This document shows, piece by piece, positions 1,057 through 22,053 of a stretch of DNA of 25,312 nucleotides (position 1 is its first letter; the number at the start of each line of letters is the position of its first letter). Made by a program: the position numbers and the translations under genes. The stretch comes from a virus (lineage: Duplodnaviria > Heunggongvirae > Uroviricota > Caudoviricetes): IMG/VR virus record IMGVR_UViG_648276668_000012. One strand, written 5' to 3'. The notes under the pieces were generated by a model. It saw only the letters and a program-made list of their open reading frames with translations, had not been told where the DNA came from and did not search any database.

Positions 1057-1134
1057 AAAAAATGCCCTCCAATAGAGAGCATTTTTACTGTATGTATAAC
1101 CAGTGTCAATGTATGATGCTTAAGGTTACATACA

Positions 1135-1506: not shown

Positions 1507-1711
1507 CTACAGCACCAAGTTTAATTATATCGTCAAATTGCTTATCGGTTAATTTAACAACACCCCAACGGTTTTTAGGATTCAAACCAATTTCTTCGAT
1601 TAGTTTAGCACGATTTATTCTTTTAGGTAAAGCTAGATTATATGTAAAACTAATAATGTAAGGGTATCTTTTTGTTTGATAGAATTTTTTTAATTCATTT
1701 TCAGAAAACAC
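1478..1711 (-). CDS. Hypothetical small protein (77 aa), overlaps the ASCH gene by 29 nt
   Basis: ORF with GTG start and no clear Shine-Dalgarno; different frame from the downstream ASCH ORF; could be a separate coupled gene or an artefact. Confidence 0.35.
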   Translation of the reverse strand: MFSENELKKFYQTKRYPYIISFTYNLALPKRINRAKLIEEIGLNPKNRWGVVKLTDKQFDDIIKLGAVDESVIVNKT

Positions 1712-1851
1712 ACTGTATCGTGCACAATACTGTATGAATTCATTTTCACTATGAAAAGAATCAATATATCTAATATCTTCAACTACACATAATGACGTTG
1801 CGACAGAACGATAGTATGCTCTGTTCTCTTCGTCACTTGTTCTGTAAACAA

Positions 1852-2553: not shown

Positions 2554-2580
2554 GTTGCCCCCTGTTTAATTTTTGTGTGA

Positions 2581-3651: not shown

Positions 3652-3673
3652 TTCCTTATATCATAGTAAGTTA

Positions 3674-4240
3674 TTATACATCTGATAATATTTTTCGATA
3701 GCATCTTGCGATGGGTTTAATATCGTCAAGCATACAATCAAAAGATGTTTGTCCACTGCTAACTTGCACTCTCCCAACTGGAATTCTAACCAGATCACGA
3801 GAACTTATTTTTCCTTCTATTTCAACAATCCATTTCCCATCAATAATTTCATCAAATTTCATGTCTACTAGATAATTATCTGATAACTCAGAAAATATTG
3901 CGGGGGTAATCATATCCTCCGGGAGCAAATCTTTATCAAAAATGTAAGAGGAATCACCTTGTAGCTTGCCATCTACTATTTTGTAATGTGGCAATTTTAT
4001 ACCTTCTTTCGTTGCCTCAAGACGAGGGGAACCAACACCAGACACTAACCACTCGAGAGACACTCCCGTTTCTAGAGCGCACTGGATTACCCAATCTGCT
4101 GGAAAAATATCACGCATATAGCGCGTTGCCATGGTGCTCTTAGAAACACCTAAATGATCACAGAGAGCCTGACGGGTACCGAACCCATATGCTTCAACTA
4201 AACGTTCTATGGCTTTCTTACCGCCGCTATTGAAATCCAT
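3674..4240 (-). CDS. cI: CI-type immunity repressor (186 CI-like)
   Basis: Protein 'MDFNSGGKKAIERLVEAYGF...CALETGVSLEWLVSGVG' resembles the 186 CI N-terminal DNA-binding domain; chosen start has GGAG RBS 6 nt upstream (the track's longer ORF to 4327 lacks this); position between int and apl/cII. Confidence 0.75.
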   Translation of the reverse strand: MDFNSGGKKAIERLVEAYGFGTRQALCDHLGVSKSTMATRYMRDIFPADWVIQCALETGVSLEWLVSGVGSPRLEATKEGIKLPHYKIVDGKLQGDSSYIFDKDLLPEDMITPAIFSELSDNYLVDMKFDEIIDGKWIVEIEGKISSRDLVRIPVGRVQVSSGQTSFDCMLDDIKPIARCYRKILSDV

Positions 4241-4267
4241 AAGTTCTCCAAAGAAATCCAAAATTCG

Positions 4268-4296
4268 TTGACAGATTCCAAAAGCGATCTTAAAGT
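4268..4296 (+). promoter_or_regulatory. Candidate rightward early promoter (pR-like): TTGACA-N17-TAAAGT
   Basis: Perfect -35 hexamer TTGACA at 4268-4273, 17-nt spacer, -10-like TAAAGT at 4291-4296, about 90 bp upstream of the apl start. Confidence 0.4.
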
Positions 4297-4385
4297 TGAA
4301 CCAGAAGTGTTCTTTTGGAGCCTTCACTACTAATCACGACAAACAACGGCTCGCCACAAGCCATATCTAGAAGGAATGTTGCCTT

Positions 4386-4589
4386 ATGACACCTAACATT
4401 TCAATTACTCTGAATACACCACATGTCACAATCGAACGTTATAGCGAACTGACTGGCCTTTCTATTGATACGATTAACGACATGTTGGCTGATGGCCGAC
4501 TACCTCGTCATCGTCTTCGTAAAGACAAAAAACGTGAAAAGGTAATGATTAACCTGGCTGCTCTGACTGTTGATGCTTTGTCTGCTTAA
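4386..4589 (+). CDS. apl: Apl/Cox-like excisionase and transcriptional regulator
   Basis: 67-aa protein with helix-turn-helix-like segment ([22 protein letters not shown]); first gene of the rightward operon, divergent from cI, as in 186/P2. Confidence 0.6.
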
Positions 4590-4644
4590 TAGACGTCTAT
4601 TTTCGCAATAAGACGCTGAGTTCGATTTTGCGATAAGTTCGGAG

Positions 4645-5163
4645 TTGAAAACCATGTTTGATTACCAAGTTTCCAAACATCCACATTTTGATGAAGCCTG
4701 TCGTGCATTCGCACTGCGCCACAACCTGGTGCAACTGGCAGAATGTGCAGGCATGAATGTACAGATTCTGCGGAACAAGCTGAACCCAGCTCAACCTCAT
4801 TTATTAACCGCACCAGAAATCTGGCTGCTTACCGATCTGACTGAAGATTCAACGCTGGTAGATGGTTTTCTGGCTCAGATTCACTGCCTGCCATGCGTAC
4901 CGATTAATGAGGTGGCAAAAGAGAAACTGCCGCATTACGTCATGAGTGCAACTGCTGAAATTGGGCGTGTCGCGGCAGGTGCGGTTTCTGGCGATGTAAA
5001 AACCAGTGCCGGTCGTCGTGATGCTATCAGCAGCATTAACTCTGTAACACGACTGATGGCGCTGGCCGCTGTTTCATTGCAGGCCCGTTTACAGGCTAAT
5101 CCTGCGATGGCGAGTGCAGTTGATACCGTGACTGGCCTCGGTGCTTCATTCGGTTTGCTGTGA
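4645..5163 (+). CDS. cII: CII-like lysogeny establishment regulator (186 CII family)
   Basis: N-terminus '[20 protein letters not shown]' and C-terminus '...[21 protein letters not shown]' closely match the remembered 186 CII sequence; true start may be the ATG at 4654. Confidence 0.8.
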
Positions 5164-5170
5164 GGTGCTT

Positions 5171-5371
5171 ATGCTGACGAAAGAACCATCATTTGCATCG
5201 CTGCTGGTAAAACAAAGCCCGGCAATGCACTACGGTCACGGCTGGATCATGGGGGAGGATGGTAAACGCTGGCATCCGTGCCGTTCACAAGATGAATTGC
5301 TGGCAGAACTATCTACGAATAAACGGGGGAACAAATGGCTATTGAAGGCGCTGCGGCGACTGTTCCATTAA
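5171..5371 (+). CDS. Hypothetical early protein (position equivalent to 186 fil)
   Basis: ATG at 5171 preceded by GAGG; 66 aa; assignment by position only. Confidence 0.45.
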   Translation: MLTKEPSFASLLVKQSPAMHYGHGWIMGEDGKRWHPCRSQDELLAELSTNKRGNKWLLKALRRLFH

Positions 5372-5676
5372 GCCCCGGTGAACGCCTGAATGGACTTAAT
5401 CACATTGCGGAATTAAGGGCGAAAGTATTTGGCCTGAATATTGAGTCAGAACTTGAGCGGTTTATTAAAGATATGCGTGATCCACGGGATATCAATAATG
5501 AACAAAATAAACGGGCACTGGCTGCCATATTCTTTATGGCAAAAATTCCAGCTGAACGTCATAGCATCAGCATTAATGAGCTGACCACTGACGAAAAGCG
5601 GGAGTTGATTAAAGCAATGAATCATTTTCGTGCAGTGGTGAGCTTATTTCCCAGACGGCTAACCATGCCGAATTAA
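5335..5676 (+). CDS. Hypothetical early protein (113 aa)
   Basis: ORF in the early rightward operon with backbone-like GC; overlaps the upstream ORF by 37 nt. Confidence 0.5.
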   Translation: MAIEGAAATVPLSPGERLNGLNHIAELRAKVFGLNIESELERFIKDMRDPRDINNEQNKRALAAIFFMAKIPAERHSISINELTTDEKRELIKAMNHFRAVVSLFPRRLTMPN

Positions 5677-5743
5677 CCAACTAATGAAATTAATGGCGTA
5701 AACCCGCCGGGTATCCCTTTATCTAAATTCAGGAGAATTGATT

Positions 5744-5977
5744 ATGCGTAATATTGAAACCCTCACGACTAAAACCGGACCGGATGATGCAGGGCTTAAT
5801 ATTTTACTGACAGAGGCTCGTCTGGAAGAACGCCGGGCAAGGGCTGAAGCAATGGCAGCTCGCCTTGATAGCCTGGCGTGTCATATCACATCCCGCCAGC
5901 TAAACCACGTCGAAGCAGCAGAACTACTGCGTGTAACTGCTGAAGCAATCCAGAACGAAGCGCAGGAGATCCACTAA
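5744..5977 (+). CDS. Hypothetical early protein (about 78 aa, alanine-rich coiled-coil-like)
   Basis: AGGAG RBS 8 nt upstream of the ATG at 5744; conserved position before the TraR-like gene in P2-like phages. Confidence 0.5.
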   Translation: MRNIETLTTKTGPDDAGLNILLTEARLEERRARAEAMAARLDSLACHITSRQLNHVEAAELLRVTAEAIQNEAQEIH

Positions 5978-6204
5978 TGGCTGATGCAATGGATCTCGTA
6001 CAGCAGCGCGTTGAAGAAGAACGCCAGCGCCATATCCGTGCTGCCCGTGCCAAAACGCCGGGCGTGTCCCGCGTGCTTTGCATTGAGTGTGAAGCGCCAA
6101 TTCCGCCAGCACGCCGCCGCGCTATTCCAGGTGTGCAGCTTTGCATTACCTGCCAGGAGATCGCAGAGCTGAAAGGCAAACATTACAACGGAGGTGCTGT
6201 ATGA
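5977..6204 (+). CDS. TraR/DksA-family C4 zinc-finger protein
   Basis: CxxC...CxxC motif (CIECEAPIPP...LCITCQ); 75 aa; typical of P2 orf82-like early proteins. Confidence 0.7.
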   Translation: MADAMDLVQQRVEEERQRHIRAARAKTPGVSRVLCIECEAPIPPARRRAIPGVQLCITCQEIAELKGKHYNGGAV

Positions 6205-7058
6205 GCACCATCCTGAAATGGGCGGGTAATAAAACCGTCATTATGCCAGAACTGAAAAAATACCTTCCTGCTGGCCCGCGACTGGTTGAACCTTTCGCGG
6301 GTTCTTGTGCTGTGATGATGGAGACGGATTACCCCAGCTATCTGGTTGCGGATATTAATCCTGATTTAATCAACCTCTATAAAAAGGTTGCCGCTGATTG
6401 TGAATCGTTTATATCTCGCGCCAGAGTTTTATTTGAGAACGCAAACAGGGAGATGGCTTATTACAACATAAGGCAGGAGTTTAATTACTCAACTGAAATT
6501 ACTGATTTCATGAAAGCGGTATATTTCCTGTATCTCAATCGTCACGGTTACCGTGGTTTATGTCGCTATAACAAGAGCGGGCATTTCAACATTCCCTATG
6601 GTAATTATAAAAATCCGTATTTCCCTGAAAAAGAAATTCGCGCATTTGCAGAAAAGGCCCAGCGAGCCACGTTTATCTGCGCCAGCTTTGATGAAACGCT
6701 GGCGATGTTGAAGGCGGGGGATGTGGTGTATTGCGATCCGCCTTATGACGGTGCGTTTTCCGGCTATCACACTGACGGCTTCACTGAAGATGACCAGTAT
6801 CACCTGGCATCCGTTCTTGAACATCGGTCATCAGAAGGACATCCGGTCATTGTTTCTAACAGTGACACATCCCTGATCCGTTCGCTGTATCGCAATTTTA
6901 CTCACCACTACATCAAGGCAAAACGCAGCATTGGCGTGGCAGCTGGTGAGAGTAAATCTGCAACAGAAATCATCGCTGTTTCCGGGCCGCGCTGCTGGGT
7001 AGGATTTGATCCTTCGCGTGGCGTGGATTGTTCCGTCGTGTACGGAGTGCGTGCATGA
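6201..7058 (+). CDS. dam: DNA adenine methyltransferase (Dam family, N6-adenine)
   Basis: N-terminal 'ILKWAGNK' AdoMet-binding motif and catalytic 'DPPY' motif ([10 protein letters not shown]); GGAGG RBS; ATGA overlap with the upstream gene. Confidence 0.85.
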
Positions 7059-9469
7059 GCCATGCTGATATGAACAACTGCAGCGGCTTTAACGAGGTCG
7101 CCGCAGCATTCTCATGGAACAGCCCGAAAAAGGCCATTAACCCTTATCTGGACCCGGCGGAAGTTGCGCCGGTTTCTGCGCTTTCAAACCTGATCACTCT
7201 GTACGCTGCCGATAACGAGCAGGAACAACTGCGCCGCGAGGCACTGAGTGATCAGGTCTGGGAGCGTTATTTCTTTAATGAATCCCATGATCCTGTCCAG
7301 CGCGAAATGAAGCAGGATAAGCTCATTAGCCGGGCAAAGCTGGCGCATGAGCAGCAGCGTTTTAATCCGGATATGGTCATTCTGGCGGACGTCAACGCCC
7401 AGCCTTCCCATATCAGCAAGCCGCTGATGCAACGTATTGAATACTTTAGCAGCCTGGGCAGGCCAAAGGCTTATTCCCGCTATTTACGTGAGACGATTAA
7501 GCCATGTCTGGAACGACTGGAGCATGTACGCGACAGCCAGCTATCTGCATCTTTTCGCTTTATGGCAAGCCATGAAGGGCTGGACGGCCTGCTGATCCTG
7601 CCTGAAATGAGTCAGGATCAGGTGAAGCGCCTGTCTACCCTTGTCGCCGCGCATATGAGCATGTGCCTTGATGCAGCTTGTGGTGATTTGTATGCCACCG
7701 ATGACGTTAAGCCAGAAGAAATCCGCAAGACATGGGAAAAGGTGGCAGCGGAAACCCTGCGTCTGGATGTCATCCCGCCTGCGTTTGAGCAACTCCGCCG
7801 GAAAAGAAACCGCCGTAAACCCGTGCCCTATGAACTCATTCCGGGTTCGCTGGCGCGTATGTTGTGCGCCGACTGGTGGTACCGGAAATTATGGAAGATG
7901 CGTTGCGAATGGCGGGAAGAGCAGTTGCGTGCTGTTTGCCTGGTCAGCAAAAAAGCATCTCCCTATGTCAGCTATGAAGCCGTGATGCATAAACGTGAGC
8001 AGCGCCGTAAGTCGCTGGAGTTTTTCCGTTCTCATGAACTGGTGAACGAAGACGGCGACACGCTGAACATGGAGGATGTGGTAAACGCCAGCAGCAGCAA
8101 CCCGGCGCATCGCCGCAACGAGATGATGGCCTGTGTTAAAGGCCTGGAGCTTATCGCGGAAATGCGTGGTGACTGCGCCGTTTTCTACACCATCACCTGT
8201 CCGTCACGTTTCCATTCCACGCTAAATAACGGCAGGCCCAACCCGACCTGGACAAATGCGACGGTAAGACAAAGCAGCGATTATCTGGTCGGTATGTTTG
8301 CTGCATTTCGTAAGGCGATGCACAAAGCCGGGTTGCGCTGGTATGGCGTGCGGGTGGCTGAGCCGCATCACGACGGCACAGTTCACTGGCACCTGTTGTG
8401 TTTCATGCGCAAAAAAGACCGCCGCGCCATTACTGCATTGTTGCGTAAGTTTGCCATCCGTGAAGACCGCGAGGAGCTGGGCAATAACACGGGGCCACGC
8501 TTTAAGTCTGAGCTGATAAACCCGCGCAAAGGTACGCCAACAAGCTACATCGCGAAATATATCAGCAAGAACATTGACGGGCGTGGTCTGGCTGGCGAGA
8601 TCAGCAAGGAAACGGGTAAATCTCTGCGTGATAACGCTGAATACGTGAATGCCTGGGCGTCTTTGCATCGTGTTCAGCAATTCCGCTTCTTTGGTATTCC
8701 GGGACGTCAGGCTTACCGTGAACTTCGCTTGCTGGCTGGTCAGGCGGCAAGGCAACAGGGTGACAAAAAAGCAGGTGCGCCGGTACTGGATAACCCGTGT
8801 CTTGATGCCATTCTGGCTGCTGCTGATGCTGGTTGTTTTGCCACCTACATCATGAAGCAGGGCGGCGTACTGGTTCCCCGTAAATATCACCTCATCAGAA
8901 CCGCTTATGAAATCAACGAAGAGCCGACCGCCTATGGCGATCACGGTATTCGTATTTATGGCATCTGGTCACCCATTGCAGAGGGCAAGATCTGCACTCA
9001 TTCAGTGAAGTGGAAAATGGTTCGTAAAGCCGTTGACGTTCAGGAGGCGGCAGCCGACCAGGGCGCTTGCGCCCCTTGGACTCGTGGCAATAACTGTCCC
9101 CTTGCTGAAAATTTGAACCAACAGGAGAAAGATAAATCAGCTGATGGGGACACCAGAACGGACATTACCCGCATGGATGACAAGGAGTTGCACGATTACC
9201 TGCACAGTATGAGCAAAAAAGAGCGCCGGGAACTGGCTGCAAGGTTACGCTTGGTGAAACCGAAACGGCGTAAAGACTACAAACAGCGAATTACAGATCA
9301 TCAGCGACAGCAGCTCGTTTATGAGCTGAAGTCCAGAGGATTTGATGGCAGCGAGAAAGAGGTCGATTTACTCCTTCGCGGCGGCAGTATTCCGTCAGGA
9401 GCAGGCCTGCGTATCTTCTATCGGAACCAGCGTCTGCAGGAGGATGATAAATGGCGGAACCTGTATTAA
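7055..9469 (+). CDS. A: Replication initiation protein A (rolling-circle nicking endonuclease, P2 gpA family)
   Basis: About 805 aa; contains the HxH-type motif 'VHWHLLCF' and a tyrosine-rich active-site region 'YIAKYISKN'; start ATG overlaps the dam stop (ATGA). Confidence 0.85.
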
Positions 9470-9562
9470 TTACGCTGGTTAACAATTCGTGCTCTTAATA
9501 ATACCAGGCATATCAGGCTGATGAGCGTAAAAAACGTTTTACATCAGTAAGATTATTATATA

Positions 9563-9578
9563 CTGTAAATATAAACAG
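9563..9578. promoter_or_regulatory. LexA (SOS) box CTGTAAATATAAACAG
   Basis: Exact CTGT-N8-ACAG with AT-rich spacer, 44 bp upstream of the ATG at 9622, overlapping an AT-rich -10-like region (TATACT). Confidence 0.6.
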
Positions 9579-9621
9579 TGGTTATGTGTACAGTATTGCT
9601 TGTGGTGTCATAGGAGGAAAA

Positions 9622-9810
9622 ATGCAGGACTATTTTTTGGAGTCTTTGAAGCTCCAGCGCATTGATTTTTTTCTTAAGCTTGTAGCGGCTAGTGAGTGTA
9701 GTGATGAAGAGAAGGGGCTGGCTCTGCAGTGGGTTTCTGAGTTGACTGATGAACTCATGGCAAAAATCAGAACTCACGAATACAACCGCTCAATGGATGT
9801 CATCAGTTGA
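9622..9810 (+). CDS. Hypothetical protein (62 aa), first gene of an SOS-controlled pair
   Basis: AGGAGG RBS immediately upstream of the ATG; preceded by the LexA box. Confidence 0.5.
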   Translation: MQDYFLESLKLQRIDFFLKLVAASECSDEEKGLALQWVSELTDELMAKIRTHEYNRSMDVIS

Positions 9811-9820
9811 GGTGACTTTT

Positions 9821-10054
9821 ATGCGCATTGAAATAATGATCGATAAAGAGCAGAAGATTAGCCAGTCTACCCTGGACGCCCTTGAATCAGAGCTTTACCG
9901 CAATCTGCGCCCCCTATATCCAAAAACGGTAATTCGCATCCGCAAAGGTAGCTCTAACGGTGTGGAACTGACCGGACTGCAACTGGACGAAGAAAGAAAA
10001 CAAGTGATGAAAATTATGCAGAAGGTGTGGGAAGACGACAGCTGGCTGCATTAA
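9821..10054 (+). CDS. tum: DinI-family protein (Tum-like antirepressor module)
   Basis: 'MRIEIMIDKEQKISQSTLDALESEL...VWEDDSWL' aligns by eye with E. coli DinI (MRIEVTIAK...ETWESADDWF); GAGGTG RBS; LexA box upstream of the pair. Confidence 0.75.
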   Translation: MRIEIMIDKEQKISQSTLDALESELYRNLRPLYPKTVIRIRKGSSNGVELTGLQLDEERKQVMKIMQKVWEDDSWLH

Positions 10055-10213
10055 GAAAAGTTGCTGGCGTCTGAACTTGGTTCTGGCGTCAGCAAGGTTG
10101 AACAACGAGTACAGTGAGGCGTTAGGTGTGGCGTTTATTTGATGAGTGAGCGCCCGTTCTGCGACAGGTTCGGAGATTAAGGTTGAAACTACGGGCAAAA
10201 TACCATCTTTTTC

Positions 10214-10639
10214 CTACTTAATTGAGTCCAGTAACAAGTTACAGTTACTCTCATTGTAGAGAGAACGAGCAATTAGTGTTACCTGCTTTCCATTCATTCC
10301 CGGCTTATCCCATAACACAGCTTCTTGCGACGCCACAAATTCAGCATAATCAATTATGCGTTGTTCGTGATCTGGTTCCTCATAGCCAAAGTATGAGAGC
10401 GCATCGTTGTAAGCGTGGTAAGCTGCTTTCTGTAATATCTTGATATCGGCTGTAGGTACTTGCTCCGTGTAGCTAGGATCTAATTGTGTGCTACTGCCAT
10501 AGAATGCACATGAAAGGTAAGATATTGATTTCTGTTGAGCTTTAGTTCCTTTCTCATAGTTTTTAGCTGTTACCGCCTGAACTGGGACGCTAACAAAGCT
10601 TGCAACCAGAATTAAAATTAATACGTAAAAGCTTTTCAT
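10214..10639 (-). CDS. Hypothetical secreted/periplasmic protein (141 aa) with N-terminal signal peptide
   Basis: N-terminus 'MKSFYVLILILVASFVSVPVQAVTA' is a typical Sec signal peptide; AT-rich; opposite orientation to flanking genes; at the P2 tin/old-equivalent position. Confidence 0.55.
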   Translation of the reverse strand: MKSFYVLILILVASFVSVPVQAVTAKNYEKGTKAQQKSISYLSCAFYGSSTQLDPSYTEQVPTADIKILQKAAYHAYNDALSYFGYEEPDHEQRIIDYAEFVASQEAVLWDKPGMNGKQVTLIARSLYNESNCNLLLDSIK

Positions 10640-10912
10640 TTTGACCTCAGCCGAAACGTTAGAGAGACTATCGAAATTTGTAAAACCCGTGGCGATTCAG
10701 TTTGAGATCCTCCCCCTTACATGATTTTTAATCAAATATATGCTTTTGTAAGCATACCTGTTAACCGAATTATTTATTTTTAGAGATCTTCCGACATACT
10801 GATTATGCCCGCTGAGGAGTTCACCTTGCGTAAAGTCCGATTCGCTTTACTCGTCTGTGCATGCCTATGCTGCATGAGATTGCATGATCGTTTGAGGATC
10901 GTTTTTGCTAAG

Positions 10913-10936
10913 GCCCGCCAGAACTGGCGGGCTTTT
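10913..10936 (+). terminator. Rho-independent terminator (GC hairpin plus T-tract)
   Basis: GCCCGCCAG-AA-CTGGCGGGC perfect 9-bp stem followed by TTTT. Confidence 0.5.
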
Positions 10937-10981
10937 GCGTAGATCATGCACCTGCATGAAAACCACTATATAAAGCGGGCA

Positions 10982-11000
10982 GGCGTGGCGGGGATACGAG
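10982..11000. other. Candidate cos (cohesive-end) site
   Basis: GGCGTGGCGGGGATACGAG matches the first 13 nt of the remembered 186/P2 cos 19-mers (GGCGTGGCGGGGAAAGCAT / GGCGAGGCGGGGAAAGCAC); GGGGATACG repeats 22 bp downstream; lies on the portal-gene side as in P2. Confidence 0.5.
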
Positions 11001-11087
11001 CGCGCGCTGATGGGGATACGGTGTTTTTAGTAAGGTTATGAGGTAGAATTTGACGCGGTTTTTTTAAGCATATTGAGGTGTAAATAG

Positions 11088-11633
11088 ATGGATGCTATTA
11101 CTGGATTATTGGATTTTTTTAGAAAGATTCCAACGGCACTTCTTGTAGCTATTACATGTGGTTTAAGTTTGATCCTTTTTTTGCCAGAATCTTTAGCTTC
11201 TAAAGTTGCGGTTGATGGTTTCCGTAAAGAATATAGAAATTTCATAGGACCAGCATTTTTACTGGCTGTCTCTTTTTTAGTTGCAAGAGTATATCAGTTT
11301 TTTCATGACCTATATGGCGATAGACAAAGGCACAAAGTACGTATCTCTTATTTGGAGAAGCTAACTCCTGAGGAGAAGGGATACCTCTGGTCTTATATAA
11401 TTGATGGCGAAAACTCACTAATGTGTGGTCCTGAAGATGGTGTTATGGGGGGGTTGGTTGCTAAGCGCATAACCTATAGAGCTGCAAACGTGGGCAGTAT
11501 GATTGACGGATTCGCTTTCAATTTGCAGCCGTGGGCTCGCGAGCATTTACAGAACAACACTCATTTATTAGAAGGAGCGGTCGGTAGGGCAATGACACCG
11601 GGTGAGAAACTAGGATTCAGGCGTAGATTTTAA
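11088..11633 (+). CDS. Hypothetical inner-membrane protein (181 aa, two N-terminal TM helices); possibly SieB-like superinfection exclusion
   Basis: Two hydrophobic helices (IPTALLVAITCGLSLILFL; IGPAFLLAVSFLVARVYQFF) followed by a soluble domain; lies between cos and portal gene Q, where P2 has no gene; lower GC than backbone. Confidence 0.5.
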   Translation: MDAITGLLDFFRKIPTALLVAITCGLSLILFLPESLASKVAVDGFRKEYRNFIGPAFLLAVSFLVARVYQFFHDLYGDRQRHKVRISYLEKLTPEEKGYLWSYIIDGENSLMCGPEDGVMGGLVAKRITYRAANVGSMIDGFAFNLQPWAREHLQNNTHLLEGAVGRAMTPGEKLGFRRRF

Positions 11634-11677
11634 CCAGTCGCACACAGGCGATGCTTGACTGGTTAGACAGGGATAAT

Positions 11678-12715
11678 CTATTCAGCGTTCAACTGGTAGG
11701 GGTCAAAAGATATTATTGGCTCATTTAACCATTCGTTAAGTTCTTCAAGTCGCTTTTGTAAAGGAATTAACTCATTTCGCACAAAAACGCGGCTGGCCTT
11801 TTCCACATCCCCAAAACCTCCAACATTATTTGGCATAATCCCCATCATTTGCGGCGGCACGCGGTGCGCCGCCATCATGTCATCCCGGCTCACGTTCTTG
11901 ATGTTTAGAAACTCATCCTTTGCTGCGACCTCTGACAACGGGATGATCTGAAGCCCATCCTTTTTGCCGTTAGGCGAGTACATAAACAGGTTGCGGAAGT
12001 TGCCCGGACCTTTGGCGCTTTTCATCGCGTTGCGGAGGTTGTTTACGTCCTCCTGGTTCTGCGCAGCATCGGTCATGTACATGATGAAGCCTGCATGACT
12101 GCCGTTAATGTAATACTTGCGGCGGAACAGCGTGGCGGACTCGTTGAGCAGGGCTGACGGAATGGCAGAAAGATAACCGGGCAGGCCGTAGATCTCCTGG
12201 TTAATGTCCGGTTCCATCAGATGAAAAATGCTTCCTTTCGTGAACTGATACGGCTGGGTTGTCATACCGTATTGCACAAACCAGTAGGTATCCAGGTCTA
12301 ACCCGCGTCGGGTGTATTTTGCTAGTGCAGGCTCAAGGGCGATAACTTCACCGAAGCGGTTCGTGCGTTTCTCCAGGTAGGCGTTACCAAATACCAGATA
12401 GTCCTGCACAAAACGCGAAAAAGCTTGCTGGCTGAGCAGAGGATGAGGGATATAGGTACTGGTCAGAATGTTGCACTTTACTGCAATCGGGGAACTGTGA
12501 TGCACGGCAGCGCGGAAGGTGCGCGCCAGTCCGTCAAAGCTGACGGGCGGCTCATACCAACGGTCCATCTGTACGCATTCCACATAGTCCAGTAATTCTC
12601 GGCGGTCCAGAACAGGAACGGGATCGCCGAAGCTGAATGCTTCGGCTGAAGTCTGGCTTTTATTCTGGTTCTGGTTCGTCGACGCAGTGCGGTTTTTCTT
12701 ACTCTTTCCCATCAA
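11678..12715 (-). CDS. Q: Portal protein (P2 gpQ family)
   Basis: 345 aa, size and position match P2 Q; 4-nt overlap with upstream terminase ATPase gene; leftward P-Q operon divergent from O-N-M-L. Confidence 0.85.
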   Translation of the reverse strand: MMGKSKKNRTASTNQNQNKSQTSAEAFSFGDPVPVLDRRELLDYVECVQMDRWYEPPVSFDGLARTFRAAVHHSSPIAVKCNILTSTYIPHPLLSQQAFSRFVQDYLVFGNAYLEKRTNRFGEVIALEPALAKYTRRGLDLDTYWFVQYGMTTQPYQFTKGSIFHLMEPDINQEIYGLPGYLSAIPSALLNESATLFRRKYYINGSHAGFIMYMTDAAQNQEDVNNLRNAMKSAKGPGNFRNLFMYSPNGKKDGLQIIPLSEVAAKDEFLNIKNVSRDDMMAAHRVPPQMMGIMPNNVGGFGDVEKASRVFVRNELIPLQKRLEELNEWLNEPIISFDPYQLNAE

Positions 12716-14478
12716 AAAATCTCCACAATATTGCTGGTATTGGCGGACTCGCCCTGCAGCGGTTCGTTAAACAGTGCGTGCATCGTTGCCCAGGCCAGAT
12801 CGGCGTGGCTGGCTTCTTCGCTGCGGCTGGCTTCATAGGTTGGGCGGTTGCCACTGGCGGTGGTTGCGCGACGGATTGCCATGAATGACTGCGCAATGTC
12901 GGTGTGCCCGGCGTCAAACTCCAGACGGCGGTGGCTGATAATGTCGTAGGCCTTGAGTACCAGGGCGTTTTTAACGTTGGGGTTGTAGACAAACTCCCGG
13001 ACGGCAGGAAAGAACGCTTTCACGTTCTCGTAAACCCCGTGACCAACGCCGGTTGAGTCGATACCGATATAAGTCACGTTGTACTGTTCGGTAAGTTTTT
13101 TGATGGCGTCAGCTTGGGCGCGGAAGTCCATCCCGCGCCACTGGTGACGCTCAAGAATGCGGAACTTACCACCCGGCACGGCTGGCGGTGCCACCACCAC
13201 GCATCCAGCGCTGTCGCCGTTTTGCGTACCTTTTGCCGGGTCATAACCGATCCACACTTCGCGCCAGCCAAACGGGCGCAGCGCCAGTGCATGAAAGTCG
13301 GTCCAGACTTCCCAACTGTCCACCATGCACGCCTGCAGCTCGCTGAGCGGAAACACGGACGCGAGATCGTCCACAAACTCGCACATCAGCAGGTTCTGGT
13401 ATTCGTCCGGGCTGTACTCCATGCGTAGCTGGTCGAGGTCGAACAGGTTACAGCCGCCGCGCACCGCATCTTCCACGGTGACTATCTGGCGGTATTGCCC
13501 GTCTGCGCACAGCAGGCCGGGGGCCAGATTGCTGTGGGACAGGTCGATGTCCACCTTATCGGCTTTGTTGCGCCCACGGTTGAACAGCGCACCGGACCAG
13601 AACGGATAAGCACTGTGTGTCAGACTGGATGGCGTGGAAAAATAGGTTTGTCGCCATTTTTTGTGAATAGCCATACCGGAAGCCACTTTGCGCAGCTCCT
13701 GGAATTTCGGTATCCAGAAATATTCATCCAGATACAGGTTGCCGTGGTAACTCTGGGCCGTGCGGGCATTGGTGCCGAGGAAGTAAAGCGTGGCCCCGTT
13801 AGGAAGCACCATCGGATCGCCTTTCAGCTCCACCTCCACTTCTTTGGCAAAGTCGATGATGTACTGTTTAAAGACGTGGGCCTGAGCCTTGCTGGCAGAA
13901 AGGAAAATCTGGTTACGCCCGGTCAGCAGGGCGTCAATCAGGGCTTCACGGGCAAAGTAAAAGGTCGCGCCGATCTGGCGTGACTTCAGCAGGTTGCGGA
14001 TGCGGTTGGTTTTTCCGGCTTCCCACCAGTGGCGCTGGTAGTTGAACATAGAGGAATGGAAGATTTCTTCCAGTTTCTCAATCTGTTCATCGGTAAAAAC
14101 ATTCTTTTCCGGCTGACGACGTGGGCCTTTGTTGCGGTTGGCAACGTTAGGGTTTAAGTCGGCTTCGTTGCCGCCATTGTTAAACTTGCCGATCCGCGCG
14201 TGGCGCTCAGACTGGCGTGCCAGCAGGTCAATTTCTTTGAAATCTTTCCCTTCTTTGTGCTCCTTCATAATGAGCTGGCAGTAGCGTGCGGCGGTGGTGA
14301 GCTGCATCTGATCCAGCGGCCCATAGTCACCCCACTTGTCGCGTTTTTTCCAGCTGTGAACGGTTGCAACTTTCTCGCCCAGCATTTCAGCAATGCGGGC
14401 GACGCGGTATCCCTGAAAGTACAGCAGCATGGCCTGCCGACGGGGATCGAGATCTGCGGGTGTCAGTGTGGTGTTCAT
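12712..14478 (-). CDS. P: Terminase large (ATPase) subunit (P2 gpP family)
   Basis: 588 aa (P2 P is about 590 aa); conserved position and orientation next to the portal gene. Confidence 0.88.
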   Translation of the reverse strand: MNTTLTPADLDPRRQAMLLYFQGYRVARIAEMLGEKVATVHSWKKRDKWGDYGPLDQMQLTTAARYCQLIMKEHKEGKDFKEIDLLARQSERHARIGKFNNGGNEADLNPNVANRNKGPRRQPEKNVFTDEQIEKLEEIFHSSMFNYQRHWWEAGKTNRIRNLLKSRQIGATFYFAREALIDALLTGRNQIFLSASKAQAHVFKQYIIDFAKEVEVELKGDPMVLPNGATLYFLGTNARTAQSYHGNLYLDEYFWIPKFQELRKVASGMAIHKKWRQTYFSTPSSLTHSAYPFWSGALFNRGRNKADKVDIDLSHSNLAPGLLCADGQYRQIVTVEDAVRGGCNLFDLDQLRMEYSPDEYQNLLMCEFVDDLASVFPLSELQACMVDSWEVWTDFHALALRPFGWREVWIGYDPAKGTQNGDSAGCVVVAPPAVPGGKFRILERHQWRGMDFRAQADAIKKLTEQYNVTYIGIDSTGVGHGVYENVKAFFPAVREFVYNPNVKNALVLKAYDIISHRRLEFDAGHTDIAQSFMAIRRATTASGNRPTYEASRSEEASHADLAWATMHALFNEPLQGESANTSNIVEIF

Positions 14479-14524
14479 GGCACAAACCTACAGCCTTGAA
14501 TGAAGGCTTTCCCCGCCTGCGGTT

Positions 14525-14542
14525 TGTGTGGTTGTCGGTACA
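14525..14542. promoter_or_regulatory. Candidate Ogr/Delta-type late-promoter activator site (TGT-N12-ACA)
   Basis: TGTgtggttgtcggtACA in the divergent P/O intergenic region, about 60-90 bp upstream of both start codons, as in P2 late promoters. Confidence 0.4.
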
Positions 14543-14620
14543 AATACCGCGCATTGTTTCACTGCCCCCATCACCGCAACCATAAGGCTCCAGTAAGTTT
14601 TTTCTAACGGAGCACGGCTC

Positions 14621-15454
14621 ATGACAGTGAAAGCAAAGCGTTTTCGCATCGGGGTGGAAGGTGCCACCACCGACGGACGCGAAATCCAGCGTGAATGGCT
14701 GGAACAGATGGCAGCCAGCTACAACCCGGCGGTGTACACCGCGCTGATTAACCTTGAGCACATCAAGTCTTATCTGCCGGACAGCACCTTTAACCGCTAC
14801 GGCAAGGTGACGGCGCTGTTTGCTGAAGAAATCACGGAAGGTCCGCTGGCAGGCAAGATGGCATTGTATGCCGACGTTGAGCCAACGGAGTCCCTGGTGG
14901 AACTGGTGAAAAAAGGCCAGAAATTATTCACCTCTATGGAAGTCAGCCCGAAGTTTGCTGATACGGGCAAAGCCTATCTGGTCGGCCTGGCTGCCACTGA
15001 TGATCCCGCCAGTCTGGGTACGGAAATGCTGACATTCAGCGCCAGTGCAGCCCATAACCCGCTGGCAAACCGCAAGCAGAATCCCGCCAATCTTTTTACC
15101 GCTGCAGAGGAAACGGTGATCGAACTGGAAGAAGTCCAGGACGACAAACCGTCCCTGTTTGCCCGCGTCACGGCGCTGTTTACCAAAAAAGAGCAGTCCG
15201 ATGACGCCCGGTTCTCAGATGTGCATAAGGCCGTGGAGCTGGTCGCCACTGAGCAGCAGAACCTGAGTGCGCGCACCGAAAAATCCCTGTCTGAGCAGGA
15301 AGAACGCCTGTCTGAGCTGGAGACTGCCCTGCAGGCACAGCAAACCGCCTTTAACGAACTGGTGGACAAGCTGAGTCATGAAGACAGCCGCCAGGACTAC
15401 CGCCAGCGTGCAACAGGCGGTAACGCCCCCGCTGACACTCTGACCAATTGCTGA
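14621..15454 (+). CDS. O: Capsid scaffolding protein (P2 gpO family)
   Basis: Blocks of identity with the remembered P2 gpO sequence (FRIGVEG..DGR, INLEH, YLVGLA.TDDPASLGTE, ATGG....TNC C-terminus). Confidence 0.88.
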   Translation: MTVKAKRFRIGVEGATTDGREIQREWLEQMAASYNPAVYTALINLEHIKSYLPDSTFNRYGKVTALFAEEITEGPLAGKMALYADVEPTESLVELVKKGQKLFTSMEVSPKFADTGKAYLVGLAATDDPASLGTEMLTFSASAAHNPLANRKQNPANLFTAAEETVIELEEVQDDKPSLFARVTALFTKKEQSDDARFSDVHKAVELVATEQQNLSARTEKSLSEQEERLSELETALQAQQTAFNELVDKLSHEDSRQDYRQRATGGNAPADTLTNC

Positions 15455-15470
15455 TGGAGCACAAAACCCG

Positions 15471-16529
15471 ATGAAGAAGAATACCCGCTTTGCTTTTAAC
15501 GCTTACCTGCAGCAGCTGGCGCGTCTGAACGGTGTGGCAGTTGAAGAACTGTCCAGCAAATTCACTGTGGAGCCGTCTGTGCAGCAGACGCTGGAAGACC
15601 AGATCCAGCAGTCCGCCGCTTTCCTGACGCTGATTAACGTCACGCCAGTGACTGAGCAGTCCGGTCAGCTGCTGGGGCTGGGTGTTGGCAGCACCATTGC
15701 CGGAACCACTGACACCACCGCGAAAGAGCGTGAACCTGTCGATCCGACGCTGATGGTCGATGTGGAATATAAATGCGAGCAGACCAACTTTGACACGGTG
15801 CTGACCTACGCGAAGCTGGACCTGTGGGCGAAGTTTCAGGATTTCCAGGTGCGTATCCGTGACGCCATCGTGAAACGTCAGGCACTGGACCGCATCATGA
15901 TCGGCTTTAACGGCGTGAAGCGTGCGAAAACCTCCAACCGTAGTGAAAACCCGCTGCTGCAGGATGTGAACAAAGGCTGGCTGCAGAAAATCCGTGAGGA
16001 TGCACCGGATCACGTCATGGGCAGCACCACCACGGGCGGCGAAACCACACCGGGTGCGGTGAAAGTCGGGAAAGGTGGCGAATATGCCAACCTGGACGCT
16101 GTAGTGATGGATGCGGTCAATGAGCTTATCGACGTGGTCTACCAGGATGATGACGATCTGGTGGTGATTTGCGGTCGTGAACTGCTGTCTGACAAGTATT
16201 TCCCGCTGGTCAACAAAGAGCAGGAAAACAGTGAAAAACTGGCTGCCGATATGATCATCAGTCAGAAACGCATGGGTGGCCTGCAGGCCGTGCGTGCGCC
16301 GTTCTTCCCGCCGAATGCGCTGCTGATCACCCGTCTGGATAACCTGTCCATCTACTGGCAGGAAGACACCCGCCGCCGTTCAGTTATCGACAACCCGAAA
16401 CGTGACCGGATTGAAAACTTTGAATCCGTTAATGAAGCCTATGTGGTTGAGGACTACCGCTGCGCCGCACTGGTGGAAAACATCCAGATTGGCGATTTCA
16501 GCGCCGCCGCAGCAGAAACCGGAGCGTAA
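15471..16529 (+). CDS. N: Major capsid protein (P2 gpN family)
   Basis: Strong similarity by recall to P2 gpN (TRFKFNAYL, FTVEPSV.QTL, GFNGVKRA.TS.RS.NP.LQDV, VGKGG.YA.LDA.VMDA). Confidence 0.9.
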   Translation: MKKNTRFAFNAYLQQLARLNGVAVEELSSKFTVEPSVQQTLEDQIQQSAAFLTLINVTPVTEQSGQLLGLGVGSTIAGTTDTTAKEREPVDPTLMVDVEYKCEQTNFDTVLTYAKLDLWAKFQDFQVRIRDAIVKRQALDRIMIGFNGVKRAKTSNRSENPLLQDVNKGWLQKIREDAPDHVMGSTTTGGETTPGAVKVGKGGEYANLDAVVMDAVNELIDVVYQDDDDLVVICGRELLSDKYFPLVNKEQENSEKLAADMIISQKRMGGLQAVRAPFFPPNALLITRLDNLSIYWQEDTRRRSVIDNPKRDRIENFESVNEAYVVEDYRCAALVENIQIGDFSAAAAETGA

Positions 16530-16532
16530 TCC

Positions 16533-17183
16533 ATGAGCCTGAGTCCCGCACGGCAGCATCGCCTGCGCGTTCAGGCTGAACAGGCCGCCCGCGAGGGCGG
16601 CAGTGTTCGCCACGCGTCGGGCTATGACCTGATGCTGCTGCAACTGGCGGAAGACCGCCGCCGTCTCAAGGGCGTTCAGTCCACGGTCAAAAAAGCGGAA
16701 ATCAAGGTGGAGCTGCTGCCGAAGTACGCCGCCTGGGCGGAGGGTGTCCTGGCTGCCGGAGGCGCTCAACAGGATGACGTGCTGATGTACGTGATGCTGT
16801 GGCGTATTGATGCCGGAGATTATGCCGGGGCGCTGGAGATTGGGCGTCATGCCCTGCGTCATGGCTGGGTGATGCCGCTGGGTAACCGCAACGTGCAGAC
16901 CGTGCTGGCAGAGGAAATGGCAGACGCGGCGCAGAGCGCAATGCTTGCCGCCACCGGCTTTGATGCTGATCTGTTGCTGCAGACGCTGGAGCTGACAGAC
17001 GGTCTGGATATGCCGGACCAGTCACGGGCGCGTCTGCATAAAGCGATTGGCGCGGTCCTGAGTGAAAGCAATCCGGCTTCCGCCCTTAATCATCTCAACC
17101 ATGCGTTACAGCTCGATCCCCGCTGTGGCGTGAAAAAAGACAAACAGCAGCTGGAGCGCAGACTGCGCAATGACAGCCGCTGA
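16533..17183 (+). CDS. M: Terminase small (endonuclease) subunit (P2 gpM family)
   Basis: Similarity to P2 gpM (DD.LMYVMLWR.D.GD.AGALEI....L..G; ELTDGLDMPD; LHK); position after N. Confidence 0.85.
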   Translation: MSLSPARQHRLRVQAEQAAREGGSVRHASGYDLMLLQLAEDRRRLKGVQSTVKKAEIKVELLPKYAAWAEGVLAAGGAQQDDVLMYVMLWRIDAGDYAGALEIGRHALRHGWVMPLGNRNVQTVLAEEMADAAQSAMLAATGFDADLLLQTLELTDGLDMPDQSRARLHKAIGAVLSESNPASALNHLNHALQLDPRCGVKKDKQQLERRLRNDSR

Positions 17184-19594: not shown

Positions 19595-19988
19595 AGCGGT
19601 GCCTTATGTCCGCAATAACCCGGACAAACTGCATCTGTTTGTGGATAACGGTTCGCTGGTTGCCACGGGGGCCAGCTCCATGTCGTGGGAGTACCGTTAC
19701 ACACTGAACGCGGTGATTGAGGATTTCAGCGGCGACCAGAATCTGCTGATGGCCCCGGTTTTGCTGTGGCTGAGGGATAACCAGCCCGATGCCATCAATA
19801 ACCCGGCGTTACGGGAAAAGCTATTCACCTTTGAGGTGGATATTCTGCGCAACGATGTCTGTGATATCAGCCTGAACCTGCAACTGACGGAGCGTGTGCT
19901 GGTCAGCACTGACGGCAGTGTGTCGAGCGTTGAAGCTATAGCGGAACCTGATGCACCTGAAGAAATGTGGACGGTGAAACGTGGCTGA
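19557..19988 (+). CDS. R: Tail completion protein R (P2 gpR family)
   Basis: GTG start at 19557 with AGGAG RBS; similarity to P2 gpR (KP.SLR.AL; FVDNGS; YTLN; PVL.WLR.NQPD). Confidence 0.8.
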   Translation: MNKPQSLRHALNKAVPYVRNNPDKLHLFVDNGSLVATGASSMSWEYRYTLNAVIEDFSGDQNLLMAPVLLWLRDNQPDAINNPALREKLFTFEVDILRNDVCDISLNLQLTERVLVSTDGSVSSVEAIAEPDAPEEMWTVKRG

Positions 19989-20427
19989 ACTGCAGAAGGT
20001 GGACGACTGGCTGAGTGCCTTGCTGGCGAATCTGGAACCAGCCACGAGAAGCCGCATGATGCGCCAGCTGGCGCAGGAACTTCGCCGGACACAGCAGCAG
20101 AACATCAGGATGCAGCGTAATCCTGATGGCAGCAGCTATGAACCGCGAAGGGTAACAGCACGCAGTAAAAAGGGGCGCATCAAACGTCAGATGTTTACAA
20201 AGCTTCGCACCACAAAATACCTGAAAACTGCCGCCAGCGCCGATTCTGCCAGCGTGCAGTTTGAAGGTAAGGTACAGCGCATTGCCCGTGTTCATCACTA
20301 CGGCCTGCGTGATCGCGTCAGTCGTAATGGTCCGCGAGTACACTATGCAGAGAGACGGCTGTTAGGGATAAATGCTGAAGTAATTAAGCTCATTCAAGAT
20401 ATGATATTTAGAGTCGTTACAAATTAA
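19981..20427 (+). CDS. S: Tail completion / virion morphogenesis protein S (P2 gpS family)
   Basis: 148 aa, overlaps the R stop; conserved position before the baseplate genes. Confidence 0.8.
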   Translation: MAELQKVDDWLSALLANLEPATRSRMMRQLAQELRRTQQQNIRMQRNPDGSSYEPRRVTARSKKGRIKRQMFTKLRTTKYLKTAASADSASVQFEGKVQRIARVHHYGLRDRVSRNGPRVHYAERRLLGINAEVIKLIQDMIFRVVTN

Positions 20428-20442
20428 CACTTCGAAGCTAGT

Positions 20443-20473
20443 AAAAATTAGAGTGACATAATTGCCACTCTAA
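20443..20473 (-). terminator. Rho-independent terminator for the reverse-strand cargo gene (possibly bidirectional)
   Basis: Inverted repeat TTAGAGTG-N10-CACTCTAA (20448-20473), 10 bp after the cargo-gene stop, followed on the minus strand by TTTTT (plus-strand A5 at 20443-20447). Confidence 0.5.
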
Positions 20474-20482
20474 TTAATGCGT

Positions 20483-21427
20483 TTAAATTTCGGATTTGGT
20501 TTCAAGGTTTCTCAATGTATTCGGTATCAATGTTTCACTGAATCCAGAAAGCGCACAAATCACATAAATGGAGAATGAGATGTCACTACTATTATTCATA
20601 AACCCGAAGATAATATTCCCCTTGAGCATAAAGTATACAAGTACGCCAGCCATCATTGAAAGGAGTATTCTCTCCGCACCATAGAAGAAATAAGTTTTCT
20701 TTTTTAGTTCTCTGTCTGTATGGAGGCTTTTTATTTTTAGGGATACAGAAATAAACCCCCCGATGGAAGCAAAGGAAGCGGCGTATAACACCACTGGAAT
20801 AAAGTGATTAGCTTTTATGAAATTAGAATCTCTAGCCAAATATGTTATCAATGCAAGGATGATGAATATCAATGCTAAAGTTATGGCTCCTGATTGATAT
20901 AAATTCCTTCCAAGCATTGTGTTTTCATAATCGTTTTTAATGTCTCTATTTATTGCGGCGAAGTTATTTTTGTTTATATCATTTTTTCCAAGTATTGTTG
21001 CTGACATAACTGTTGCTGCTCTTTTTTTATAAATAGAAGAGCAGTTGTATTTGTAGCAATGTGAAATAAACTCATCAAAGTGCTCTTTTGAAGCATGATA
21101 TCTATCAATCTTACTGTCATCCTCCTCAATGATTGAGTCTATGAAAACGAGCATAGACTCATGAGGCGGAAGATTGGCTACTTCATAAATGACATATTCA
21201 TCCCCACGTGAATAAATTTTACTTATGGTGTTTCCACCCAAATCTGTTCCACCAACGACGTATTTGCCAATTCTTTCTTGCTGTTTTTTTTTGTATTCAT
21301 CCCTCTCCTTCTTTGTAGGTGGGGGATTGATGGGATCATTCATTGCATCCATGGGGACAATATTATCTTGCTCAGCTGCTTCTGGGGTATTGGTGTTAGT
21401 TGTCATTTTTTGTGTAGTTAATGTCAC
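20483..21427 (-). CDS. Hypothetical cargo protein (314 aa): N-terminal soluble domain plus four C-terminal TM helices
   Basis: AT-rich ORF on the strand opposite to the tail operon, between S and V; hydrophobic helices at roughly residues 170-300; own terminator. Confidence 0.6.
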   Translation of the reverse strand: MTLTTQKMTTNTNTPEAAEQDNIVPMDAMNDPINPPPTKKERDEYKKKQQERIGKYVVGGTDLGGNTISKIYSRGDEYVIYEVANLPPHESMLVFIDSIIEEDDSKIDRYHASKEHFDEFISHCYKYNCSSIYKKRAATVMSATILGKNDINKNNFAAINRDIKNDYENTMLGRNLYQSGAITLALIFIILALITYLARDSNFIKANHFIPVVLYAASFASIGGFISVSLKIKSLHTDRELKKKTYFFYGAERILLSMMAGVLVYFMLKGNIIFGFMNNSSDISFSIYVICALSGFSETLIPNTLRNLETKSEI

Positions 21428-21474
21428 AAGGAAAGTGGATATAAATATACAAATAGTACAAATAAAATCAACTT

Positions 21475-22053
21475 ATGAACGCACAACTGACTGAAATCAT
21501 GCGCCTTATCACCAATCTGATCCGCACAGGTGTAGTCACCGAAGTGGACCGGGAGAACTGGCTTTGCCGGGTGAAAACGGGCGACCTTGAAACCAACTGG
21601 ATCAGCTGGCTGACCCTGCGTGCCGGGAATGCCCGCACATGGTGGAAACCATCGGAAGGTGAGCAGGTGGTGCTGCTGAGTCTGGGCGGCAATCTGGAGA
21701 CCGCCTTTGCGCTGCCCGCTGTCTATTCGAATCAGTTCGCACCACCGTCGACGTCGGCGGACGCCTGCGTGACAGAACATCCTGACGGTGGCTGGTTTGA
21801 ATACGAACCCGCCACCGGGCGCTGGTATGTCAGGGGCATCAAATCAATGGTCATTGAGGCCGCTGACAACATCACCATGAAAACCAGTGAGTTTGTACTG
21901 GAGGCTGACCGCACGCGCATTAACAGCGAAGTGGTGATCAATGGTGGCGTTAACCAGGGCGGCGGAGCGATGAGTTCTAACGGGATCGTGGTTGATGCGC
22001 ATCAGCATACTGGCGTCCTGAAAGGCGGCGATACAACCGGAGGCCCGGTATGA
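21475..22053 (+). CDS. V: Baseplate spike / assembly protein V (P2 gpV family)
   Basis: Strong similarity by recall to P2 gpV (RTG.V.E.D......CRV.TG...T.W..WLT.RAG..RTWW.PS.GEQV; GG.MS.SSNG). Confidence 0.88.
   Translation: MNAQLTEIMRLITNLIRTGVVTEVDRENWLCRVKTGDLETNWISWLTLRAGNARTWWKPSEGEQVVLLSLGGNLETAFALPAVYSNQFAPPSTSADACVTEHPDGGWFEYEPATGRWYVRGIKSMVIEAADNITMKTSEFVLEADRTRINSEVVINGGVNQGGGAMSSNGIVVDAHQHTGVLKGGDTTGGPV

Follow-up and report, generated by a model that had tools for sequence, protein, structure and literature searches.

The stretch of DNA analysed here (the window; 25,312 nucleotides (nt), Caudoviricetes, IMG/VR record IMGVR_UViG_648276668_000012) contains a reverse-strand gene for a predicted membrane protein, located between the tail genes S and V of a P2-like prophage. 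We refer to this gene and its product as the cargo gene and the cargo protein, to the AT-rich DNA around it as the cassette, and to the S-V junction as the slot. The initial annotation had placed the gene opposite the late tail genes, between S and V, and the families assigned to the two flanks (PF05069 on one side, PF04717 plus Apex on the other) agree with this placement (Table 1). The O operon of P2 ends with S and the V operon begins with V, and P2 late promoters bear the sequence TGT-N12-ACA (PMC3931495). The S-V junction is one of three known moron regions in P2-like phages (PMC6823313). The RefSeq record of P2 gives, in this order, S, a 'putative rho-independent terminator for O operon', the antisense Orf30, a pV activator site and V. 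In that record, Orf30 is an antisense, 'nonessential' protein of 261 amino acids (aa), and transcription of the V operon starts on the V start codon. The window shows the same layout of S, hairpin terminator, antisense gene, late-activator box and V, and the proposed equivalence to the P2 orf30 moron slot therefore holds: judged by gene order, the cargo cassette occupies the position that orf30 has in P2. Slot, orientation and regulatory layout are thus shared with P2 Orf30 (NP_046770), which by eye also has several hydrophobic, transmembrane-like stretches, as does the cargo protein, but differs from it in length and domain plan. Homology between the two proteins was ruled out (hhalign probability 0.2%, BLASTP E 7).

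Table 1. Coordinates of the S-V slot features and of the genes in a second variable region of the window.
Feature	Position	Strand	Basis
Tail completion / virion morphogenesis gene S, last gene of the O late operon	19981..20427	+	PF05069, E 8e-41
Whole AT-rich exchanged cassette, ~1.1 kb	20340..21474	.	Composition; alignments to insert-free phage and other alleles
Hairpin terminator and U run	20441..20475	-	Fold, z = -4.4; P2 annotation
Cargo gene, 307-aa inner-membrane protein	20483..21406	-	ORF list, RefSeq model, homologue alignment, dN/dS 0.044
C-terminal cytoplasmic helix, residues 295-307, invariant P295 and E302	20486..20524	-	Alignment, AlphaFold2, charge counts
Four-transmembrane domain, residues about 171-294	20525..20896	-	Hydropathy, loop charges, conservation
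Cytoplasmic N-terminal part	20912..21406	-	AlphaFold2, conservation over 169 members, no signal peptide, K/R-rich before first transmembrane segment
TGT-N12-ACA dyad, late-activator (Ogr-type) box of the V operon	21411..21428	+	Position, conservation, P2 annotation
Sigma70-like promoter (putative) of the cargo gene	21444..21471	-	Consensus scan, upstream alignment
Baseplate spike gene V, first gene of the V late operon	21475..22053	+	PF04717 plus Apex
DinI-like gene	9749-10054	+	PF06183
141-aa protein, signal-peptide-like N-terminus	10214-10639	-	No family
SieB-family superinfection-exclusion gene	11088-11633	+	PF14163, E 2e-22

A long minus-strand open reading frame (ORF) in the six-frame ORF list spans 20483..21427 and would encode 314 aa from a GTG at 21427, the length first reported. 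An ATG at 21406-21404, in frame with the same stop codon (TAA, 20485-20483), gives a product lacking the 7 residues that the GTG start would add. The alignment of every cargo homologue starts at the ATG at 21406, and the GTG falls within the late-activator dyad, making 20483-21406 the better gene model. The prophage of E. coli W is 99.9% identical to the window over the cargo region, and its RefSeq model (WP_001350048.1, 307 aa, 'hypothetical protein') begins at the ATG corresponding to window position 21406. On these alignments the ATG is the likelier start; the reverse-strand ORF of the initial annotation thus exists, with a probable product of 307 as opposed to 314 aa. No mention of WP_001350048 was found in the literature, and an Rfam scan of the window matched no RNA family.

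Comparison of the cargo gene with an allele whose protein is 92% identical (L038) yielded a nonsynonymous divergence (dN) of 0.039 and a synonymous divergence (dS) of 0.9, the synonymous sites being near saturation, and hence a dN/dS of 0.044. This comparison shows strong purifying selection at the level of codon substitutions, and together with hundreds of homologues it demonstrates that the ORF does not occur by chance. The intact ORF, the low dN/dS at this dS, and the retention of the putative promoter, the dyad and the protein motifs across alleles (see below) make it extremely improbable that the gene is a decaying or silent remnant without current function in the host, even though it is rare in E. 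coli and AT-rich DNA is reportedly prone to H-NS silencing.

The GC content of the cargo gene is 0.36 overall and 0.32-0.38 along its length, compared with 0.55-0.60 in both flanks, confirming the markedly lower value noticed at the outset. The left junction of the cassette is located inside S, at about 20335-20350, and the last 25-30 S codons are recoded AT-rich, though the S proteins are 90% identical. At the right, the cassette ends at the V start codon; the 68 bp that separate the cargo ATG from V are rich in AT and, the dyad excepted, dissimilar to insert-free phage. Related Peduoviridae (Escherichia phage 500465-1 and many Klebsiella prophages) match both flanks but not the cargo gene, with S and V separated by 68 bp in phage 500465-1 and by about 66 nt in Wphi. 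As the junctions are found inside S and at the V start, the cassette moves by recombination within S and V as opposed to precise insertion, and composition and alignments show it to be foreign AT-rich DNA exchanged in this manner. An E. coli prophage (L043, GCA_049931005.2) with flanks 94-97% identical to the window contains a cargo allele with just 69% DNA and 58% protein identity, a comparison that suggests that one allele has replaced another of the same family at this slot. The moron assignment is supported by AT-rich composition, antisense orientation, position in the slot and absence from close relatives; a terminator hairpin and a conserved, putative sigma70-like promoter site (see below) would make the gene independent of the late operons.

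The hairpin downstream of the cargo gene (20446-20475) has a 13-bp stem and a 4-nt loop, starts 7 nt past the stop codon and leads on the minus strand into a run of five U, two within the stem and three beyond it. Its energy is -15.9 kcal/mol (z = -4.4), with none of 200 shuffles folding as well, and inverted repeats were seen at the equivalent site after the stop codon in other cassette alleles (by eye from the alignment, not folded). The initial annotation had described a dedicated terminator at 20443-20473. While the hairpin itself is real, its coordinates differ slightly and it is probably shared with gene S, because it is found at the position of the annotated O-operon terminator of P2.

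Upstream of the cargo gene, a putative sigma70-like promoter comprises a -35 element TTGATT (21471-21466), a 16-nt spacer and a -10 element TATATT (21449-21444). We aligned the upstream regions of ten cassette alleles, the proteins of which are 58-100% identical. The sequence GTATATT, which contains the -10 element, is invariant in all ten of these otherwise diverged alleles, and both a TTGAxx-like -35 directly after the V start codon and a TTGT-N12-ACAA dyad are kept. The spacing from dyad to V ATG is 46 nt in the window as well as in insert-free phage. Five TGT-N12-ACA sites occur in the window compared with seven expected by chance; three of the five are found in the divergent P-O promoter region (14467, 14525) or before V (21411). 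Since the site count is not above chance, the dyad before V is credited solely on the grounds of position, constant spacing and conservation among alleles. The two dyads of the P-O promoter region span 14467-14484 and 14525-14542, the latter 46 nt from the P start codon. No Shine-Dalgarno sequence was seen by eye ahead of V, and the V-operon transcription start site of P2 is the V start codon, which together suggests that late transcripts are leaderless. The position of the predicted promoter implies that cargo transcription would start near 21437, placing the activator box in the cargo leader, and that the cargo promoter would overlap the core of the divergent V-operon promoter (PV).

This arrangement is pertinent to the question of whether the cargo protein is an accessory of the phage life cycle, affecting lysis timing or membrane remodelling during the phage's own lytic growth. 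A membrane protein encoded about 1 kb downstream of the holin, endolysin, LysB and LysC genes, with tail genes R and S between, could fit such a role. However, the gene runs opposite to both late operons and its start is not preceded by a late-activator box (the one present faces V from within the leader), most related phages, viable ones included, do not carry it, and it also occurs outside phages. In addition, a 307-aa protein with a 165-aa cytoplasmic domain is unlike holins. We consider a life-cycle role very unlikely. Identity as a holin proper was rejected on the basis of size (307 aa compared with a typical <150 aa), antisense orientation to the late operon and a location outside the lysis gene run; a weak LydA-holin match in one of 44 aligned family members (E 0.0024) was treated as noise.

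Hydropathy analysis identified four transmembrane (TM) segments in the cargo protein. The mean number of K and R residues across 44 homologues is 3.9 before TM1, 3.2 in the TM2-TM3 loop and 2.3 in the C-terminal tail, as compared with 0.75 and 0.43 in the remaining two loops. These high counts indicate an N-in/C-in topology with a cytoplasmic N-terminal domain, and the two periplasmic loops are merely 10-12 residues long. AlphaFold2 yielded a model with a predicted local distance difference test score (pLDDT) of 81.9 for the whole protein and 86.4 for the N-terminal domain alone. Disorder is predicted for residues 1-25. An alpha/beta domain spans residues 30-165 and consists of a helix, a sheet of three strands and three more helices; a long helix comprising residues 150-190 continues straight into TM1. 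Hydropathy, positive-inside counts and AlphaFold2 thus all support the soluble N-terminal domain plus four TM helices proposed at first. The fold search matched no solved fold.

Conservation was analysed using 169 full-length family members with a median identity of 26%. Near-invariant residues are G52, D55, G58 and Y74 in the N-terminal domain and G216, G217 and S220 (GG..S) in TM2. An E245-R246 signature marks the start of TM3, with R246 near-invariant, and the end of TM4 is characterised by the signature G288-F-S-E291-T-L-x-P295, in which G288, F289, S290, E291 and P295 are near-invariant. All conserved positions of the membrane domain are oriented toward the cytoplasmic leaflet. Among the prophage alleles, the N-terminal domain is more diverged than the TM domain (median identity 56% vs 75%).

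These features can be compared with those expected for superinfection exclusion without cell death, whereby genome entry is blocked at the inner membrane, as in the case of T4 Imm or P22 SieA. Imm, SieA and the SieB family (PF14163) are small, phage-borne, single-gene inner-membrane protectors that resemble the cargo protein in size, origin and location. The latter is likewise a prophage-encoded single-gene inner-membrane protein with a lysogeny-type putative promoter, and the SieB-family gene in another hotspot of the same prophage shows that such cargo is selected here. In contrast, there is no sequence relationship to any of these proteins and no similarity to Imm, SieA or SieB models. The mass of the cargo protein is almost entirely cytoplasmic, its periplasmic exposure is minimal, the invariant residues are located on the cytoplasmic face, and the family also has members in genomes and surroundings where no phage is apparent. 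Exclusion of this type is thus a rather improbable function.

The cargo protein has no match above noise in Pfam, PADLOC, PHROGs or NCBIfam, and a scan of the 44 aligned members for recurring weak family matches gave scattered noise. A word-indexed search of a collection of 5.8 billion proteins retrieved 45 clusters when using the single sequence and 106 when using a profile. None of the 106 clusters has a Pfam family domain on record, the sole Pfam match being an IS66 C-terminal element on one of them (P0029), and cluster names, where given, are 'hypothetical' or 'uncharacterized', bar one stray JGI (Joint Genome Institute) label 'RatA'. An exhaustive profile search of 1.84 billion representatives found 2656 relatives at E <= 1e-3 and 1049 at E <= 1e-10, counted as clusters at 50% identity. 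Nearly all are 250-310 aa long and match end to end; the fusion proteins in the family (P0068, P0072 and others) contain no recognisable additional domain. Family loci are found in Gammaproteobacteria, Betaproteobacteria, Alphaproteobacteria, Bacteroidota, Campylobacterota, Acidobacteriota, Spirochaetota and Armatimonadota, whereas tblastn of 50,697 deposited phage records and 72,556 plasmids gave no match to the cargo gene. These searches, taken with the predicted topology, show the cargo protein to be an inner-membrane protein of an undescribed, widespread family.

Two records labelled 'DH5alpha' (NZ_CP026085.1 and NZ_CM135829.1, 4.83 Mb) carry the cargo gene at 99.9% identity, as E. coli W does; these strain labels may be wrong. 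The E. coli W annotation places an IS3-family transposase beside the prophage tail-fibre genes (L001 10881-12058, past the right end of the window), and the E. coli W prophage may be defective because of this adjoining transposase.

Every enterobacterial homologue examined (58-100% identity; from Citrobacter, E. coli, Pantoea and viral contigs) is antisense in the S-V slot of a P2-like prophage. Other members are found outside phages, and homologues are therefore not confined to structural contexts; confinement of that kind was one of the outcomes that the initial annotation had regarded as speaking against its reading. In 27 of 30 loci the family gene is richer in AT than the DNA on either side (median difference -0.09). 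Clustering of neighbouring genes in 39 loci revealed no conserved partner gene outside the P2 tail genes; one neighbour cluster (c17) recurs in seven loci without a fixed position, and response-regulator domains are the commonest Pfam match among neighbours.

Nine non-P2 loci have Pfam-annotated neighbours. Restriction-modification (RM), OLD-like, TIR, putAbiC or toxin-antitoxin genes are found within five genes in four of these, and integrase, transposase, prophage or conjugation genes in five. In Burkholderia, the family gene is part of an island between integrases and adjoins a type II RM system; in a Chitinophagaceae locus it has a type III RM system plus an OLD-like ATPase on one side and an integrase on the other. 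The Bowmanella locus is an integrative element with type IV secretion system and replication genes. Further loci adjoin an IS110 transposase, occupy a prophage end with Mu-type tail genes, or are near TIR, PIN toxin-antitoxin and DUF4062 NTPase genes. In Tolumonas, the gene directly follows putAbiC, and the array also contains CcdAB, a KAP NTPase and ParE. This last contig (L065, uncultured Tolumonas, about 1-16882) contains a mostly same-strand run of putAbiC, KAP NTPase, NUDIX, GNAT, PLDc_2 and NADAR genes, with CcdAB and ParE on the strand opposite to the main run; by its gene content the run resembles a chromosomal integron cassette array or a defence island.

Some homologues, by comparison, have ordinary chromosomal surroundings, with ion-channel, Band_7 or bestrophin genes beside them. 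Such neighbours would be consistent with a host-fitness or lysogenic-conversion protein that could act as a small channel or transporter, function in envelope stress or confer immunity to a membrane-acting toxin. The conserved charged TM residues R246 and E291 would suit a channel or transporter, and the lack of a defence-model match is in line with such a role. However, no toxin or pathway partner is conserved, the patchy distribution and AT-rich genes are typical of horizontal transfer, alleles are exchanged on one prophage backbone, and the slot is shared with cargo matching defence or defence-candidate models. A host-fitness role is, on balance, unlikely.

To place the cargo gene among other occupants of the slot, we searched complete E. 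coli genomes with the joined flanks without the cassette and obtained matches in 1060 of 5426 genomes; P2-like prophages are thus present in about one fifth of these. An evenly spaced sample of 60 records was taken from the joined-flank matches. The non-empty slots (L051-L057) each contain one gene, encoding a SIR2-family, an FRG-domain, a DUF5677 or a DUF6216 protein or one of two unrelated hypothetical proteins, apart from an insert of ~1 kb without an annotated gene (L057). The DUF6216 cargo is also present in C43(DE3) and Rosetta2(DE3), which are derivatives of BL21(DE3). In Klebsiella phage Kp4865-2 (L002 2034-3545), the slot encodes a 503-aa protein with a Walker-A-like motif. Slot cargoes have a GC content of 0.32-0.37 and are mostly antisense. 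They share with the cargo gene the same junction and the character of single AT-rich genes, but their sequences are unrelated to it; homology of the cargo protein to DUF6216 and to a 288-aa slot cargo was tested and rejected. Using PADLOC, the SIR2 cargo matches LmuA/ThsA-type SIR2 models and the FRG cargo matches the defence candidate PDC-S15, and defence-type annotation among the other cargoes is limited to these two.

Several new defence systems have already been found in two variable regions of P2-like prophages, and the two large hotspot studies consulted cover the old/tin, Z/fun and tail-cI regions; the S-V junction is not among the regions treated in these two. The old/tin hotspot of the window prophage, at 9470-11678 between replication gene A and portal gene Q, contains three genes (Table 1), among them the SieB-family gene.

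Given this circumstantial context, an anti-phage role for the cargo protein is plausible, if putative. We favour an abortive mechanism in which a sensor and a membrane effector are combined, to which we assign a probability of roughly 0.4. It is favoured because both the mass of the protein and its conserved residues are cytoplasmic, because a variable N-terminal domain is rigidly coupled to a conserved TM domain, and because the company kept in the slot and in islands is defence-like. According to this proposal, the cargo gene would be transcribed in the lysogen from its sigma70-type promoter, and H-NS may damp this transcription, as at other AT-rich loci. The cytoplasmic domain would sense an infection cue, following which the TM domain would compromise the membrane, leading to abortive infection or exclusion. 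During lytic growth, the late activator would bind the box in the cargo leader, fire PV and shut the cargo gene off.

Lambda RexA/RexB is expressed in lysogeny and has a 4-TM inner-membrane part thought to collapse the membrane potential upon a trigger from the sensor. By analogy, the cargo protein would share the cytoplasmic sensor and the 4-TM part but combine in one chain what lambda encodes in two genes, and would in effect be a RexA/RexB-like sensor and channel fused. The cargo protein has no match in Pfam at E <= 1, although it was not checked whether Pfam contains a RexB model. TM effectors of CBASS (cyclic-oligonucleotide-based anti-phage signalling systems), Pycsar and similar systems also consist of a sensor domain fused to a membrane-damaging TM domain. 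The cargo protein has a similar domain plan, but no PADLOC match and no conserved cyclase or partner gene.

A number of observations weigh against an abortive defence function. The cargo protein matches no Pfam, NCBIfam or PHROG family. The initial annotation had considered it a candidate abortive-infection or exclusion factor, yet a scan with the defence-system hidden Markov models of PADLOC-DB 2.0 returned no match to the cargo protein at E <= 1 and one stray match among the 44 members. Structural match searches gave nothing informative, and a profile search against PDB sequences gave nothing meaningful. Prophage morons also encode virulence or fitness factors, and an argument from genomic location carries little weight. 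The 144 pooled neighbours are heterogeneous and dominated by unrelated functions, and two of the nine annotated non-P2 contexts are ordinary chromosomal neighbourhoods. The slot is empty in most of the 60 sampled E. coli records, and of the 5426 complete E. coli genomes 11 have the cargo gene itself, several of these being E. coli W or its derivative KO11FL. Finally, the putative cargo promoter matches the consensus at 9 of 12 positions, and shuffled sequence yields matches of this quality at least as often as the region does; the promoter argument thus rests on conservation.

The broader proposal is that the cargo protein represents a new anti-phage family of single genes, the first of its members to be recognised, in which a fast-evolving cytoplasmic sensor is linked by one continuous helix to a conserved 4-TM effector and which prophages, islands and cassette arrays have spread across many bacterial phyla. 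S-V would then be a further defence hotspot, and the late activator would switch the cargo off through promoter overlap. This proposal is a tentative one, held with slightly less confidence than the abortive mechanism itself. The S-V junction carries interchangeable single-gene cargoes, including SIR2, FRG and this undescribed membrane family. If the cargo gene is not a defence gene, it would be an ordinary uncharacterised moron. If it is, it would constitute a compact one-gene system with a mutational handle in R246 and E291, and would give a name to a family of >1000 currently unannotated protein clusters. The predicted overlap of its promoter with a leaderless PV would then offer a simple model for how a prophage may silence potentially toxic cargo in lytic growth.

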